IMG/VR virus record: IMGVR_UViG_647533159_000003
From: a virus
Lineage: Duplodnaviria; Heunggongvirae; Uroviricota; Caudoviricetes
Strand: one strand, 5' to 3'
DNA: 46,723 nt
The position numbers were made by a program, and so were the translations under genes. Shown here piece by piece: positions 8,547-44,050 of the stretch (the stretch's first letter is position 1; each line of letters opens with the position of its first letter). A model generated the notes under the pieces. The model did not search any database and was not told the DNA's origin. It saw only the letters and a program-made list of their open reading frames with translations.

Positions 8547-9391
8547 NNNNNNNNNNNNNNNNNNNNNNNNNNNNNNNNNNNNNNNNNNNNNNNNNNNNNN
8601 NNNNNNNNNNNNNNNNNNNNNNNNNNNNNNNNNNNNNNNNNNNNNNNNNNNNNNNNNNNNNNNNNNNNNNNNNNNNNNNNNNNNNNNNNNNNNNNNNNNN
8701 NNNNNNNNNNNNNNNNNNNNNNNNNNNNNNNNNNNNNNNNNNNNNNNNNNNNNNNNNNNNNNNNNNNNNNNNNNNNNNNNNNNNNNNNNNNNNNNNNNNN
8801 NNNNNNNNNNNNNNNNNNNNNNNNNNNNNNNNNNNNNNNNNNNNNNNNNNNNNNNNNNNNNNNNNNNNNNNNNNNNNNNNNNNNNNNNNNNNNNNNNNNN
8901 NNNNNNNNNNNNNNNNNNNNNNNNNNNNNNNNNNNNNNNNNNNNNNNNNNNNNNNNNNNNNNNNNNNNNNNNNNNNNNNNNNNNNNNNNNNNNNNNNNNN
9001 NNNNNNNNNNNNNNNNNNNNNNNNNNNNNNNNNNNNNNNNNNNNNNNNNNNNNNNNNNNNNNNNNNNNNNNNNNNNNNNNNNNNNNNNNNNNNNNNNNNN
9101 NNNNNNNNNNNNNNNNNNNNNNNNNNNNNNNNNNNNNNNNNNNNNNNNNNNNNNNNNNNNNNNNNNNNNNNNNNNNNNNNNNNNNNNNNNNNNNNNNNNN
9201 NNNNNNNNNNNNNNNNNNNNNNNNNNNNNNNNNNNNNNNNNNNNNNNNNNNNNNNNNNNNNNNNNNNNNNNNNNNNNNNNNNNNNNNNNNNNNNNNNNNN
9301 NNNNNNNNNNNNNNNNNNNNNNNNNNNNNNNNNNNNNNNNNNNNNNNNNNNNNNNNNNNNNNNNNNNNNNNNNNNNNNNNNNNNNNNNNNN
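8547..9391. other. Run of 845 N (assembly gap or masked sequence)
   Basis: Uninterrupted n characters; length not a multiple of 3, so the reading frame is not preserved across it. Confidence 0.99.
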
Positions 9392-12450: not shown

Positions 12451-12663
12451 TTTCATATTGGCGAGGTGATGGGAGTTAAGTAGAATTGCTGCGGGTGCTT
12501 GAGGCTATCTGCCTCGGGCATGAACACCAACGGCAGATAGAGAAAAGCCCCAGTTAACATTACGCGTCCTGCAAGACGCTTAACATTAATCTGAGGCATA
12601 TCTGTATGCGACACATAAAGATTAGCCTCTTAACAGTAAGAAATCAACTAACAGGGGGCTGTA

Positions 12664-12809
12664 ATGCGAAGGAGCTATGTGTTTTGTCTGGTGGTGGTTT
12701 GCATCACCATTCTGATATTTGTCTGGATGGTTCGCTATGCGAGCTGCACATCAGGCAGGGAAACACAGAGCTTTCAGCGTATTTAGCCTACGAAGTTGAA
12801 AAACGTTAA
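12664..12809 (+). pseudogene. hok/gef-family type I toxin gene with an internal frameshift (mok-like overlapping frame 12606-12809)
   Basis: Frame from ATG 12664 gives MRRSYVFCLVVVCITILIFVWMVR (Hok TM-like); the Hok C-terminal signature SLCELHIRQGNTELSAYLAYE continues in the adjacent frame. Confidence 0.55.
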
Positions 12810-12876: not shown

Positions 12877-12897
12877 AACCCGCTTCGGCGGGTTTTT
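12877..12897 (+). terminator. Rho-independent terminator (copy 1 of a repeated 21-mer)
   Basis: aaCCCGCttcgGCGGGttttt. Confidence 0.7.
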
Positions 12898-13023
12898 CGT
12901 CGCATTATGAGGTTGTAATTTTAGCTACCATTAGACTATCCTAAGGATCTCAAACAGATCTATTTTGCATCAAATTTGGTGCATGGCTTTGCCAATAATC
13001 GGAAAACAAAAGGACTCATTAGT

Positions 13024-13203
13024 ATGAGCTGCCCACTCAAAAAACACACGCGGTTGAGTATTCCGCCTCGCGATAAAAGCGTTGTGGCAGTCCCTCGCCC
13101 AGCGATTGATGAAAACTGCGCACATCGTGAACAAGTGAAAAATGCTTTTGACTTCGGTTTTTCTCGTTATGAGAAAGCCATGGAAGACCTCTCTAAAGTG
13201 TAA
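13024..13203 (+). CDS. Putative antitoxin partner of the Doc-family toxin
   Basis: 59-aa ORF ending 3 nt before the toxin start; no family recognised; alternative TTG start at 12976. Confidence 0.4.
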   Translation: MSCPLKKHTRLSIPPRDKSVVAVPRPAIDENCAHREQVKNAFDFGFSRYEKAMEDLSKV

Positions 13204-13206
13204 TAG

Positions 13207-13707
13207 ATGGGGCTGTACTCCATGGCTGAGATTGTTGAAGGTGTGCATTACCTTACGGTTGATGATCTTGTTGAAATCAATTGTTCCCTAATTGAATTAC
13301 AGACGCCAGATGAGCCCGTTGGTGTTCTGAGTCCAGATAACTTAAGTTCTTCTCAGGCCCGTCCCAGCATGGTTCGATGGTATGAACAGATCAATGACAT
13401 GTTTGTACTGGCATCGGCATTGATTGAAAGTCTGATTCAGAATCATCCGTTTGCTAATGCGAACAAACGAACAGCTATGATGGCTGGTTACGTCTTCTTG
13501 TTGTTGAATGGCTATGAGTTAACAGCACCAGGCGATGAAATCGTGGAAATGGCAGAGGGACTGGCCTGCAAAACCTATACTCGAGAAGATCTCGAGAACT
13601 GGTTGTGTTATTGGTCTCGCGCGTATGACAGCCGGGAATTATGTAAAACAGGCGCAACTATTGTTTTGTATGAAACTATCAAGCTAAAAATAGAACAGCA
13701 AAACTAA
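13207..13707 (+). CDS. Fic/Doc-family toxin (Doc-like motif HPFANANKR)
   Basis: Motif ...NHPFANANKRTAMMAGYVFLL... fits the Doc signature HxFx(D/N)(A/G)NKR. Confidence 0.7.
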   Translation: MGLYSMAEIVEGVHYLTVDDLVEINCSLIELQTPDEPVGVLSPDNLSSSQARPSMVRWYEQINDMFVLASALIESLIQNHPFANANKRTAMMAGYVFLLLNGYELTAPGDEIVEMAEGLACKTYTREDLENWLCYWSRAYDSRELCKTGATIVLYETIKLKIEQQN

Positions 13708-13723
13708 AGGTGCTTCCAATGAA

Positions 13724-13745
13724 AACCCGCTTCGGCGGGTTTTTT
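13724..13745 (+). terminator. Rho-independent terminator (copy 2 of the same 21-mer)
   Basis: aaCCCGCttcgGCGGGtttttt, identical to the 12877-12897 core. Confidence 0.75.
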
Positions 13746-14169
13746 GTTGTTTATTTTCGGTGAGTATGATGCATCTGGTTGTACTGATGTGGCTGGCTGA
13801 TTCTGTTATTCAGGTGGCTTATTGCTGTTGATTGGTATGTCTTCACGGCTAGAATCGAGGATCTTAAGTAGCGCGCAGGGAGAAGAGGGATGGACCCCTT
13901 AAGGGGAGGTGTTTAAAGTTCACGGGATTTTGGTTATGAACGATAAGGAATTAATTGCTGCGCTCTCTGTACCTGGTAATTATGAAGTAATAGTTCTTGA
14001 GAATGGTGAATTTATCGTAATGCCATTGCCACCCGATGTTATTCTGATCACCAAAGAATCGCATGCGGATTCGGTCAGTCACTTCAGCATTAAGAAAGAC
14101 TAGATTATAATGCCGTAGTTAAAGCCAGCCTGAACAACTGGCGTCTGTCGCACCATTACGAGGATAGTA

Positions 14170-19853: not shown

Positions 19854-20417
19854 NNNNNNNNNNNNNNNNNNNNNNNNNNNNNNNNNNNNNNNNNNNNNNN
19901 NNNNNNNNNNNNNNNNNNNNNNNNNNNNNNNNNNNNNNNNNNNNNNNNNNNNNNNNNNNNNNNNNNNNNNNNNNNNNNNNNNNNNNNNNNNNNNNNNNNN
20001 NNNNNNNNNNNNNNNNNNNNNNNNNNNNNNNNNNNNNNNNNNNNNNNNNNNNNNNNNNNNNNNNNNNNNNNNNNNNNNNNNNNNNNNNNNNNNNNNNNNN
20101 NNNNNNNNNNNNNNNNNNNNNNNNNNNNNNNNNNNNNNNNNNNNNNNNNNNNNNNNNNNNNNNNNNNNNNNNNNNNNNNNNNNNNNNNNNNNNNNNNNNN
20201 NNNNNNNNNNNNNNNNNNNNNNNNNNNNNNNNNNNNNNNNNNNNNNNNNNNNNNNNNNNNNNNNNNNNNNNNNNNNNNNNNNNNNNNNNNNNNNNNNNNN
20301 NNNNNNNNNNNNNNNNNNNNNNNNNNNNNNNNNNNNNNNNNNNNNNNNNNNNNNNNNNNNNNNNNNNNNNNNNNNNNNNNNNNNNNNNNNNNNNNNNNNN
20401 NNNNNNNNNNNNNNNNN
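19854..20417. other. Run of 564 N flanked by identical 102-bp sequence
   Basis: n characters; flanks are exact duplicates, suggesting an unresolved contig join or a masked insertion. Confidence 0.99.
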
Positions 20418-41367: not shown

Positions 41368-44050
41368 ATGTCTGTATTAATTTCGGGTGTGCTGACGGAT
41401 GGCACGGGACTCCCCATGTCCGGATACCATATTATTCTGAAAGCCCGACAGAATACATCCGCAGTGGTTATGAGAACGGTGGCAACAGTGGTGACGGGGC
41501 CGGCAGGAGAATATGCATTTGAGGCTCAGACCGGAAGATATGACGTTTATCTTCGGTCATGTATTGAAAGAGAATATTGTGTTGGTGATATTTCGGTTTA
41601 CGACGATTCAAAGCCCGGCACACTGAACGACTTTCTGACCGCCCTTGATGAAGGCGATTTAAAGCCGGATGTAGTGAAACGCTTTGAGGAACTGGTGGCG
41701 CAGGCGCAGCAGAGCGCGGAAGCGGCAGCGGAAAGCGAACGACAGGCCGGGCAACATGTCGCTGATGCGCAACAAATCAAGAGCGACTGCGAGACGCTGG
41801 CGGATAACGTACAGCAGAATGCAGAAGCCGTTGCCGAAGATAAAAAGCAGGTGGCACAGCTGGCATCATCTGCCACACAGGATGCCGCCCGCGCAGAGCA
41901 GGCTGTCAAGGATGCTGNNNNNNNNNNNNNNNNNNNNNNNNNNNNNNNNNNNNNNNNNNNNNNNNNNNNNNNNNNNNNNNNNNNNNNNNNNNNNNNNNNN
42001 NNNNNNNNNNNNNNNNNNNNNNNNNNNNNNNNNNNNNNNNNNNNNNNNNNNNNNNNNNNNNNNNNNNNNNNNNNNNNNNNNNNNNNNNNNNNNNNNNNNN
42101 NNNNNNNNNNNNNNNNNNNNNNNNNNNNNNNNNNNNNNNNNNNNNNNNNNNNNNNNNNNNNNNNNNNNNNNNNNNNNNNNNNNNNNNNNNNNNNNNNNNN
42201 NNNNNNNNNNNNNNNNNNNNNNNNNNNNNNNNNNNNNNNNNNNNNNNNNNNNNNNNNNNNNNNNNNNNNNNNNNNNNNNNNNNNNNNNNNNNNNNNNTAT
42301 TACACCTTTTCCACGCGAACGGAAGAAACCACCGGGGATAACAGAAATTATCTGGCTGGATAATGGCTGGGGCGACAAAACCAGCCAGACAGCAACAAAG
42401 CTGGTTCTGTTCTTTGGAAAAGACGGACGGATTCTTATGACCGTTCGTGGCGATAATATCTCCGCCCCGGTCACCTGGACGAATCTGACGCCACAACTGG
42501 GCAATGCAGCACAAAAGGATGCGCAGGAGAATATTTACGACCGCACCGAAGGCCGCCTGGCGATTCCTGGCATGTTCGGTTTCGGGAAAATATTTTCCAG
42601 TAGCGACAGAACTGAATTTAAATCAGGGACTGATTTTCTCAGGTGGGTAAAAACAGCAAAACCCGGTCGTTATACCGTATTTGCGGACACAAATGTGGTG
42701 GTACCTGGCATACAGACAAACGGTGTTATTGAAATTATCTGGCCACAACCTAAAACCAGCCCGAATGATGAGTATGCCTATAAGATAATTATTTATTACG
42801 GTGTTAATGGTCATATTTATTATAACCGTTGCGCGGTGTCATCAGATGGTGGTTATCTGGTTGGCTGGGAAAACCTGAAGGTTGATGAGGCTTCACTCAG
42901 GGCACTGATTGAAGCCCGCGCACCACTGAAAAGTCCGGCACTGACCGGAACTCCGACAGCACCAACACCGCCGGATGATGCAGCAGGTAATGAAATAGCC
43001 AATGCGGAGTTTGTCCGCAAACTGCTCGCTGCGCTGGTTGACTCATCACCTGAAGCCCTGGACACGCTGAACGAGCTGGCAGCGGCGCTGGGTAATGACC
43101 CGAACTTTGCGACAACGGTCACTAATGCACTGGCAGGTAAACAGCCGCTTAATGACGTGTTAACGGCTGTCAGCCAGATAATACCGGAAGAAAACACGCT
43201 GCCTTATTTCAGTGAAGAGGGCCGGATTTTACTGGCGCAGCTGTCAGAAAAAGCCCGCGCATTACTGGCACTGGACACACCTGAAGCCATGCGCACGGAG
43301 CTTGAGCTGAAAGCGGCTGCGACGATGGAATCCCAGAGCGATATCCGCGACCGTACACCGGGCAGGCTGGCGCTGTCCGGCATGTACGGATTCGGTCAGG
43401 CATTTACCAGCACCGACGCTCTGGCGTTTGACGGACAGGCTGATTTTGCTGAATGGCTGAAAGAGGCCACGCCGGGGCGTTATGCGGTCAGCATTGCGGA
43501 CTCTTCCACGCTGCTGGTTGGCACAACGAAATTTAACGGCATCATTGATGTAATGTGGTCGCCCTTTGATAACGATGAGTCGGACACAACGCGCAAATTC
43601 AAAACGCTGCTGTGTTTTAACCAGTATTACGAAGGTGAGCACAGTATTCATCGCCTGACTTATCGCTGGAGTGGAAACAACTGGAATGCAACAGTAAGCC
43701 CTGTCATTTACGATGGCGATTCGCTGGCGTTCCTGCTGTCCCGAACGGCAGGCTCAGGCTCATATTTCAAATACCCGGCAGTGGGTGTTCCGGTGCTTGC
43801 TGTTTATCGCGGAACAACGTCCGGGGATAAAGAAATCAAAATTGGCCTGGGTGATGTGGTGCCAGGGTCACAACTGGGCGGAGTTAATCTTTCGTGCACA
43901 ATATCTTCTGCGGGGGCTGGCTCCTACGGTTCCACACCGAGTGCAGGAGCTACAGGGTACACTTTTCCGGGGCGTTATATGGCGTTATCCGGGGTCAGGG
44001 ACTCTTACGGAACAAGCGGTCGTATCTGCCTGTTTGTGCGCATCGAGTAA
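41368..44050 (+). CDS. Side tail fibre (lambda Stf-like N-terminus, P2 H-like central collar), interrupted by an N run
   Basis: N-terminus ...ISGVLTDGTGLP...ILKARQNTSAVV...VYDDSKPGTLNDFL... resembles lambda Stf; after the gap ...APLKSPALTGTPTAPT...LNELAAALGNDPNFATT.TNALAGKQP... resembles P2 H. Confidence 0.7.
41918..42297. other. Run of 380 N inside the fibre gene
   Basis: n characters; length mod 3 = 2, which explains the apparent frame change of the fibre ORF. Confidence 0.99.

Follow-up and report, generated by a model that had tools for sequence, protein, structure and literature searches.

The 46.7-kb window analysed here, which is the whole stretch of viral DNA of IMG/VR record IMGVR_UViG_647533159_000003 (all coordinates are window positions), carries a two-gene cassette that encodes a toxin of the Doc family and, very probably, its cognate antitoxin, a 59-amino acid (aa) protein of a new family. 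The cassette lies between two identical terminator hairpins. Comparison with related loci assigns the left hairpin to the adjacent hok/sok locus and the right hairpin to the cassette itself, and indicates that the site directly after the hok terminator acts as a variable cassette slot, which is empty or holds either a Doc cassette or a RosmerTA-like cassette. The antitoxin family is uncharacterised, and no description of the hok-terminator slot was found in the papers searched; the Doc toxin type is already known. We propose a moron-type type II toxin-antitoxin (TA) cassette with a helix-neutralised Doc toxin, flanked by two separate terminators, in a slot whose occupants are joined at the hairpin. 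Taken as a whole, we consider this proposal likely.

The Doc toxin gene and its conserved partner

The downstream gene of the cassette (13207-13707, + strand) is a maximal open reading frame (ORF) of 166 aa that profile searches identify as a member of the Doc toxin family. A preliminary description of this DNA had pointed to a Fic/Doc-type ORF with the motif HPFANANKR and proposed a profile search, which returned TIGR01550 DOC_P1 (E 1.5e-36, 125.2 bits against a cutoff of 38.65), Pfam Fic PF02661 (E 6e-11, 43.5 bits against a cutoff of 24), and PHROG 577 'Doc-like toxin' (E 1.7e-50). The 166-aa protein also matched the Doc chains 9vzc, 3k33, and 3dd7 of the PDB, and the match between P1 Doc and the window Doc was weak (phmmer, E 1.3e-05, residues 55-120). 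The Doc active-site motif is HxFx(D/N)(A/G)NKR, in which Lys replaces the second Gly of the Fic motif. In the window protein, HPFANANKR is intact at residues 80-88 (H80 to R88, encoded at 13444-13470) and aligns with HIFNDANKR of P1 Doc. Translation probably starts at the second ATG at 13222, giving a protein of 161 aa and a gap of 18 nucleotides (nt) after the upstream stop, because this start (MAEIV...) is conserved in Doc homologues and is used by RefSeq in the 99% identical copy of E. coli M8, and because the cassette variants L086 and L094 have their first ATG in a different reading frame. The toxin itself is ordinary, a routine Doc homologue that is already named in RefSeq. A PADLOC search returned no meaningful match for either Doc or the 59-aa protein.

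The upstream gene (13024-13203, + strand) encodes the 59-aa partner, which is labelled 'hypothetical protein' in RefSeq. Three observations argue that this gene is genuine: the protein matches PHROG 2208 (function unknown) from end to end (E 1.4e-40), the gene keeps 59 codons without gaps in 12 of 12 loci compared from nine genera, and substitutions in these loci are dominated by third codon positions (186:107:397 at positions 1, 2, and 3).

The two genes are tightly coupled, as the preliminary description had supposed. In the window, they share a reading frame, and only the tandem stops TAA TAG stand between the maximal ORFs. Loci found through the partner protein comprised eleven genomes, including four of Providencia, together with E. 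coli and IMG/VR copies and phages. A Fic/Doc gene adjoins the partner gene in 20 of the 21 informative loci, which range from Enterobacterales to Pseudomonas phages; P0041 was left out of the informative loci, its contigs ending too early. The Doc gene is directly downstream in all 17 loci from genomes and named phages, namely E. coli, Serratia, Citrobacter, Kluyvera, Hafnia, Rosenbergiella, Morganella, Providencia, Yersinia pestis, Salmonella phage SW-37, and two Pseudomonas P2-like phages, and the gap between partner and Doc is 3-18 nt across loci. The two P2-like phages, Sirocco and LPPA56, encode partners with 52-54% identity at a distance of 3 nt from Doc, with a single stop and one sense codon (GCC) ahead of the toxin start. 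A Fic-domain gene also follows the partner in all three distant metagenomic members (P0036, P0032, and P0029). In the unannotated record of Salmonella phage SW-37 (L005 2301-2945), both partner and Doc appear frameshifted, and the identical 21-mer described below is still present at the cassette end.

At a coverage of at least 80%, the cassette was found in 107 of 5,426 complete E. coli genomes, where its genes are always labelled 'death-on-curing family toxin' and 'hypothetical protein'. The closest genome copy, in E. coli M8 (L001 7137-9553), is 99.1% identical and has the IS66-family element ISEc23 ~280 nt downstream of the cassette, which is absent from the window.

When a known toxin gene shares a two-gene operon with a short conserved ORF, the comparative genomics of TA systems takes that ORF to be very probably the antitoxin, and Fic/Doc toxins are on record with several unrelated antitoxin families, namely Phd, AbrB/MazE, and YhfG (PMC2701414). 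The cassette shows the arrangement generic for type II TA systems, in which a small upstream gene is co-conserved with a known toxin. Since this conserved small gene lies directly upstream of a known toxin across diverse genomes, we conclude that the 59-aa partner is very probably the cognate Doc antitoxin of a new family.

The partner family

The partner family is small: counted as clusters, it has 13 at 90% identity and, among 1.84 billion representatives, 32 at 50% identity. Its members are all 47-95 aa long, and none is fused with another domain. Two motifs are conserved, RLxIPxRDK towards the N terminus and QVxNAFxxxFxRYEKAxxxLSKV within the C-terminal helix, which is the most conserved part of the family. 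An AlphaFold2 model based on a 33-sequence alignment predicts residues 1-33 to be without secondary structure and residues 34-57 to form a helix (predicted local distance difference test score, pLDDT, ~96). Neither a DNA-binding fold nor a globular domain is predicted in this model, and the N-terminal fold of YefM/Phd is likewise missing from it.

The earlier impression that the partner matches no recognised family and is not Phd/YefM-like held up in all searches. The 33 family members gave no recurrent match to Pfam, including PF02604 (YefM/Phd), the 59-aa protein gave none to NCBIfam, and the family profile found no relative in the PDB; a designed protein that appeared there (E 1.7) was rejected as spurious. 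An hhalign comparison of the family profile with P1 Phd, whose sequence had been checked against the PDB, returned a probability of 1.4% for a 9-residue chance match. Membership in the Phd/YefM family is therefore ruled out by Pfam, hhalign, and the AlphaFold2 model together. Membership among the YhfG/VbhA class I Fic antitoxins is ruled out as well: the inhibitory motif (S/T)xxxE(G/N) is absent from the 59-aa sequence when read directly, and none of the family members searched matched the YhfG Pfam model. The Glu at position 50 varies in the family alignment. Our literature searches found nothing specific on this antitoxin family.

The partner very likely neutralises Doc through its C-terminal helix. 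By analogy with the C-terminal helix of Phd, this invariant amphipathic helix would most likely bind the toxin and block it. The hydrophobic register of the helix can be matched by eye to Phd residues 56-70; this match was treated as an analogy only and was not used as evidence.

Ownership of the two hairpins

A motif search of the window located the 21-mer AACCCGCTTCGGCGGGTTTTT in exact copies at 12877-12897 and 13724-13744, both on the + strand, in agreement with the identical flanking sequences reported in the preliminary description. No further copy was found in the 46.7-kb window, even when three mismatches were allowed, and the 21-mer had no occurrences in 100 dinucleotide shuffles. The copies are spaced 847 nt apart, and the repeat grows to 24 nt with one mismatch. 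Both copies fold into a 5-bp G+C stem (CCCGC/GCGGG) with a UUCG tetraloop (C(UUCG)G) and A-U pairs that extend the stem, followed by a T-run. Their folding energies in 41-nt contexts are -13.9 kcal/mol (copy 1) and -16.2 kcal/mol (copy 2), and the fold of copy 2 has a z of -3.7. A simple terminator scan reports copy 2 only, copy 1 being skipped because it has exactly five Ts followed by CGT.

The two hairpins had been taken to belong together as the ends of the cassette, which comparison with cassette-free relatives contradicts. Copy 1 lies outside the cassette. It is the intrinsic terminator that ends the hok transcript of the adjacent hok/sok locus, and it forms the left boundary of the slot. 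The conserved hok 3' sequence runs directly into copy 1, and PPompW phages have hok with the same 3' sequence and a single hairpin without the Doc cassette, which is the basis for this assignment. The locus consists of the sok antisense RNA and hok leader (12493-12666, + strand; full-length match to Rfam RF01794, 98.2 bits against a gathering threshold of 59, E 4.3e-22) and a frameshifted hok-like coding region (12664-12809, + strand). The latter has its N-terminal half in the frame of 12664-12786 and its C-terminal half in that of 12606-12809, with the Pfam HOK_GEF profile split across the two frames (profile positions 3-23 and 23-42). Compared with the intact hokD of E. coli M8 and the gef of PPompW, the window hok has a 7-nt gap. 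The frameshift may mark a pseudogene or reflect a sequencing error; sok and the leader RNA are intact.

Copy 2, which begins 16 nt past the Doc stop codon, is the intrinsic terminator of the Doc operon and forms the right boundary. We assign it to the cassette because Doc cassettes away from hok keep the hairpin only at their 3' end. The Doc cassettes of Citrobacter and Salmonella phage SW-37, which are away from the hok-terminator hairpin, end in the same hairpin, and those of other genera end in variant hairpins (e.g., CCCACTTCGGTGGG, CCCGCTCAGGCGGG, and GCCACCTACGGGTGGC), one variant stem being CCCAC..GTGGG, with some compensatory stem changes. No identical hairpin was seen upstream of the Doc cassette in those loci compared outside the hok slot.

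Judged by its distribution, the 21-mer is a generic, near-optimal strong terminator (CCCGC-UUCG-GCGGG followed by a T-run) and not a cassette-specific mark. It was found in at least 120 viral loci, and among the matches listed it occurs in ~100 unrelated contexts with a G+C content of 0.30-0.67, which speaks against the earlier idea that the 21-mer marks cassette boundaries in other genomes. The Rfam rsmX model has this same hairpin as its consensus terminator. Sub-threshold Rfam matches to rsmX and istR at 13656-13746 were rejected as small RNA genes, since the terminator alone explains them.

A variable position downstream of hok

In loci that share the hok 3' end and the hairpin, divergence starts immediately past the T-run. 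The position was found with nothing in it (a single hairpin followed by several right flanks), with the Doc cassette, of which two variants with distinct 5' non-coding regions occur, or with RosmerTA-like cassettes. The latter encode RmrT and RmrA (PADLOC, E 4.6e-25 and 6e-105; helix-turn-helix and Peptidase_M78 domains in Pfam) and occur in three diverged versions, with RmrA proteins only 32-43% identical, in lambdoid prophages (L011 2836-4675, and also L227, L157, and L146). Each version opens with a GGTTGACAAA promoter-like element a few bases past the hairpin and closes with the same hairpin.

All cassettes with enough sequence, 36 of 36 for Doc and 37 of 37 for Rmr, end in CCCGCTTCGGCGGG (at most one mismatch) and a T-run. 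These 73 assessable occupants fall into five cassette classes, with protein differences of up to ~70%, and all share the 14-nt hairpin core. Homology with empty sites picks up directly after the cassette-end hairpin, and the same right flanks recur with different occupants and with empty sites. The left side of the slot is thus always hok, the middle has at least six states, the right side is of at least four to five types, and the breakpoints coincide with the hairpin. Away from hok, a second copy of the 21-mer within 4 kb was found in one of ~100 contexts among the matches listed (572 kb searched). A single 198-aa gene on an unrelated high-G+C viral contig (L100 10095-10800) also lies between near-identical hairpins, AAACCCGCTTCGGCGGGTTTTTT and AACCCCGCTTCGGCGGGGTTTTTT, which are 686 nt apart.

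These patterns suggest that the site past the hok terminator works as a variable slot for cassettes, with empty, Doc, and RosmerTA-like states. The preliminary description had envisaged an insulated cassette that was acquired or duplicated as a unit. Our comparison agrees with gain and loss of the cassette as a whole, its boundaries coinciding exactly with the two hairpins, and the duplication found no support. We found no description of a hok-adjacent slot in literature searches.

Upstream region and genomic setting

The 5' region of the cassette (12898-13023, + strand, 126 nt) contains a candidate sigma-70 promoter, TTGTAA-18-TATCCT (12913-12942, + strand, from a hexamer scan), an 18-bp near-palindrome, TGCATCAAATTTGGTGCA (12966-12983, from the repeat and palindrome listing), and the ribosome-binding site AAGGA (13010-13014, + strand) ahead of the 59-aa ORF. 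Type II antitoxins bind their toxins and usually control their own operons through palindromic operators. The second cassette variant keeps the promoter candidate as TTGTGA-18-TATGCT. Promoters in Providencia and Morganella are clearer (TTGACT-17-CATTAT, with a palindrome between -35 and -10), and that of the Pseudomonas phage cassette is TTGACA-17-AACAAT.

The surroundings are typical of a lambdoid nin-equivalent region, with replication genes, DUF551, and hok followed by DUF968, RusA, and a late regulator, and they fit the nin-region location given in the preliminary description. Deviating G+C content was set aside as an indication of foreign origin, as the G+C content of the cassette is undistinctive. 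The window contains runs of N (masked or unknown bases) at 8547-9391, 19854-20417, and 41918-42297, and ORFs listed across these runs are artefacts.

Proposed mechanism and alternatives

We propose that the cassette is a moron-type type II TA module in the nin-equivalent region of a lambdoid prophage, laid out as a weak candidate promoter, the 59-aa antitoxin gene, the Doc toxin gene, and an intrinsic terminator. Its homology and the intact HxFx(D/N)(A/G)NKR motif suggest that Doc would act as a P1 Doc-type kinase, which phosphorylates EF-Tu and stops translation. The identical hairpin of 20-24 bp would serve as a recombination joint for the occupants of the slot. It could do so through short-homology exchange, Campbell-type insertion, or direct-repeat deletion, with phage Red/RecT-type recombinases as plausible catalysts, and direct-repeat deletion would regenerate empty sites. 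An identity of 20-24 nt comes close to the 23-27 bp reported as the minimum for pairing by Red-beta (PMC3945230). The joint is suggested by the fact that all assessable occupants end in the same hairpin and that right flanks are shuffled among occupants. We give recombination at the hairpin roughly an even chance, because the loci are not independent and because recombination in the flanks together with convergent terminator use could mimic the pattern.

Several points weigh against this proposal. The role of the hairpin in recombination is read from comparative junction patterns, and, with 21 identical nt, the repeat is no longer than the shortest stretch reported to be paired efficiently by Red-beta, 23-27 bp (PMC3945230). 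Many of the IMG/VR loci are near-identical prophages of related strains, and their counts are not counts of independent events. Homologous exchange in hok or in downstream genes, combined with convergent use of an optimal terminator, could yield much of the pattern. The promoter candidate of the window is weak (4/6 and 4/6 matches, 18-nt spacer), and a standard promoter scan requiring at least 9 of 12 matches found no site in 12898-13023. The G+C content of the cassette (0.434 versus 0.484) lies at the 18th percentile of equal-sized window segments and is no outlier. Finally, P0045, the weakest match to the partner family (49 aa; L257 2001-2150), stands in a phage-like string of genes without a Fic/Doc neighbour; either the match is false or the gene is an antitoxin-like orphan.

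The alternative that fares best is convergence only, in which both units independently came to use a near-optimal terminator and the slot changes through homologous recombination in the flanks together with illegitimate insertions between genes. This would fit the occurrence of the 21-mer in ~100 unrelated viral contexts of wide G+C range among the matches listed, its identity with the rsmX consensus terminator, and the fact that Doc cassettes away from the hok slot already have a 3' hairpin. Moreover, morons by definition have their own terminators (PMC3594210). However, convergence would have to produce the 14-nt core, with at most one mismatch, in 73 of 73 assessable occupants of five classes with proteins differing by up to ~70%. 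Nor does it readily account for the return of empty-site homology immediately past the hairpin, for the free combination of right flanks with occupants, or for the rarity of second copies elsewhere (1 in ~100 listed contexts, 572 kb). We therefore judge convergence alone to be rather unlikely.

In a second alternative, the 59-aa protein would not be an antitoxin but a transcription factor or an accessory or activating subunit, or the Doc homologue would be harmless to the host and act on an invading phage or another target. The missing homology of the 59-aa protein to any known antitoxin, the absence of a DNA-binding fold or globular domain from its predicted structure, and the occurrence of one weak family member (P0045) without Doc could be read in this way. 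However, the order is strictly conserved, with the small gene upstream at gaps of 3-18 nt in distant hosts and phage types; a short conserved gene that forms a two-gene operon with a known toxin very probably encodes the antitoxin (PMC2701414), and the catalytic motif of Doc is intact. We consider this alternative improbable.

Lastly, the direct repeats of 20-24 nt at both cassette ends could suggest a target-site duplication or attachment (att)-like sites of a dedicated transposase or integrase, but we rejected a transposase target-site duplication and regard the whole explanation as very improbable, because genes for a recombinase or transposase are absent from the Doc and RosmerTA cassettes alike, a 21-nt duplication is far above the usual length, the left copy already exists as the hok terminator in empty sites, and Doc cassettes elsewhere have no upstream copy.

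The moron-type TA cassette in a hairpin-joined slot remains the explanation that we favour. A bolder version of it would make the hairpin AACCCGCTTCGGCGGGTTTTT a portable, recombinase-independent docking site past the hok terminator of lambdoid prophages, at which TA and defence cassettes ending in this hairpin would be gained, exchanged, or lost through Red/RecT-type short-homology recombination within it. The outcome would be an integron-like slot built from terminators, and the partner would found a minimal, helix-only family of Doc antitoxins. We regard this version as speculative and doubtful.

Comparison with known systems

One of the closest parallels to the cassette is Phd-Doc, known from bacteriophage P1 and Salmonella Typhimurium. 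Both are two-gene operons carried by a prophage, with the antitoxin upstream of a Fic-fold toxin that has the Doc motif. In both, neutralisation would fall to the C-terminal helix of a small protein that is otherwise mostly unstructured; this helix is a model prediction in the cassette and corresponds to residues 52-73 in Phd (PMC9207808). However, the window partner, at 59 aa, lacks the N-terminal DNA-binding domain of YefM/Phd and has no detectable relationship to Phd, and the window Doc (161-166 aa) is longer than P1 Doc (126 aa). The P1 prophage is a plasmid, whereas the window cassette is integrated in a lambdoid prophage.

YhfG-Fic and VbhA-VbhT resemble the cassette in that the gene of a Fic-fold enzyme is preceded by that of a small helical protein; YhfG-Fic pairs have been reported to be restricted to Enterobacteria/Gammaproteobacteria (PMC2701414). 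In contrast to these systems, the window partner is without (S/T)xxxE(G/N), and the window enzyme has the Doc (kinase) motif instead of the Fic (AMPylation) motif.

As to its mode of carriage, the cassette resembles phage morons of the HK97 gene 15 type, which are independent units with their own terminator that lie between backbone genes and are present or absent among relatives (PMC3594210). The cassette likewise has its own terminator and is present or absent between otherwise collinear phages. Two further moron traits are a promoter of their own and a deviating G+C content, for which the cassette shows the weak promoter candidate and the 18th-percentile G+C content given above. The anti-phage hotspots of P2/P4 prophages are similar to the hok slot in carrying alternative TA or defence cargo. 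Unlike morons and these hotspots, the hok slot is bounded by two copies of one terminator hairpin, of which the left one is the terminator of a type I TA locus. A type II TA system beside a hok-family type I TA locus is presumably also found in the corresponding lambdoid region of the Qin prophage of E. coli K-12, with relBE upstream of hokD and rem/ydfU-like genes following (compare the PPompW annotation). The Doc module of the window is instead downstream, after the hok terminator.

Significance

With 59 aa, consisting of about one helix and a conserved extended segment, the partner would be a compact model for the neutralisation of Doc without the Phd fold, and it would serve as a template for Doc-inhibiting peptides. 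For phage genomics, the hok-terminator slot with its Doc and RosmerTA-like cargo may outweigh the toxin result, as a modestly interesting comparative finding. If the hairpin is a recombination joint, it would provide a concrete and testable mechanism for the movement of morons between phages, as well as a simple sequence handle for finding further cargo.

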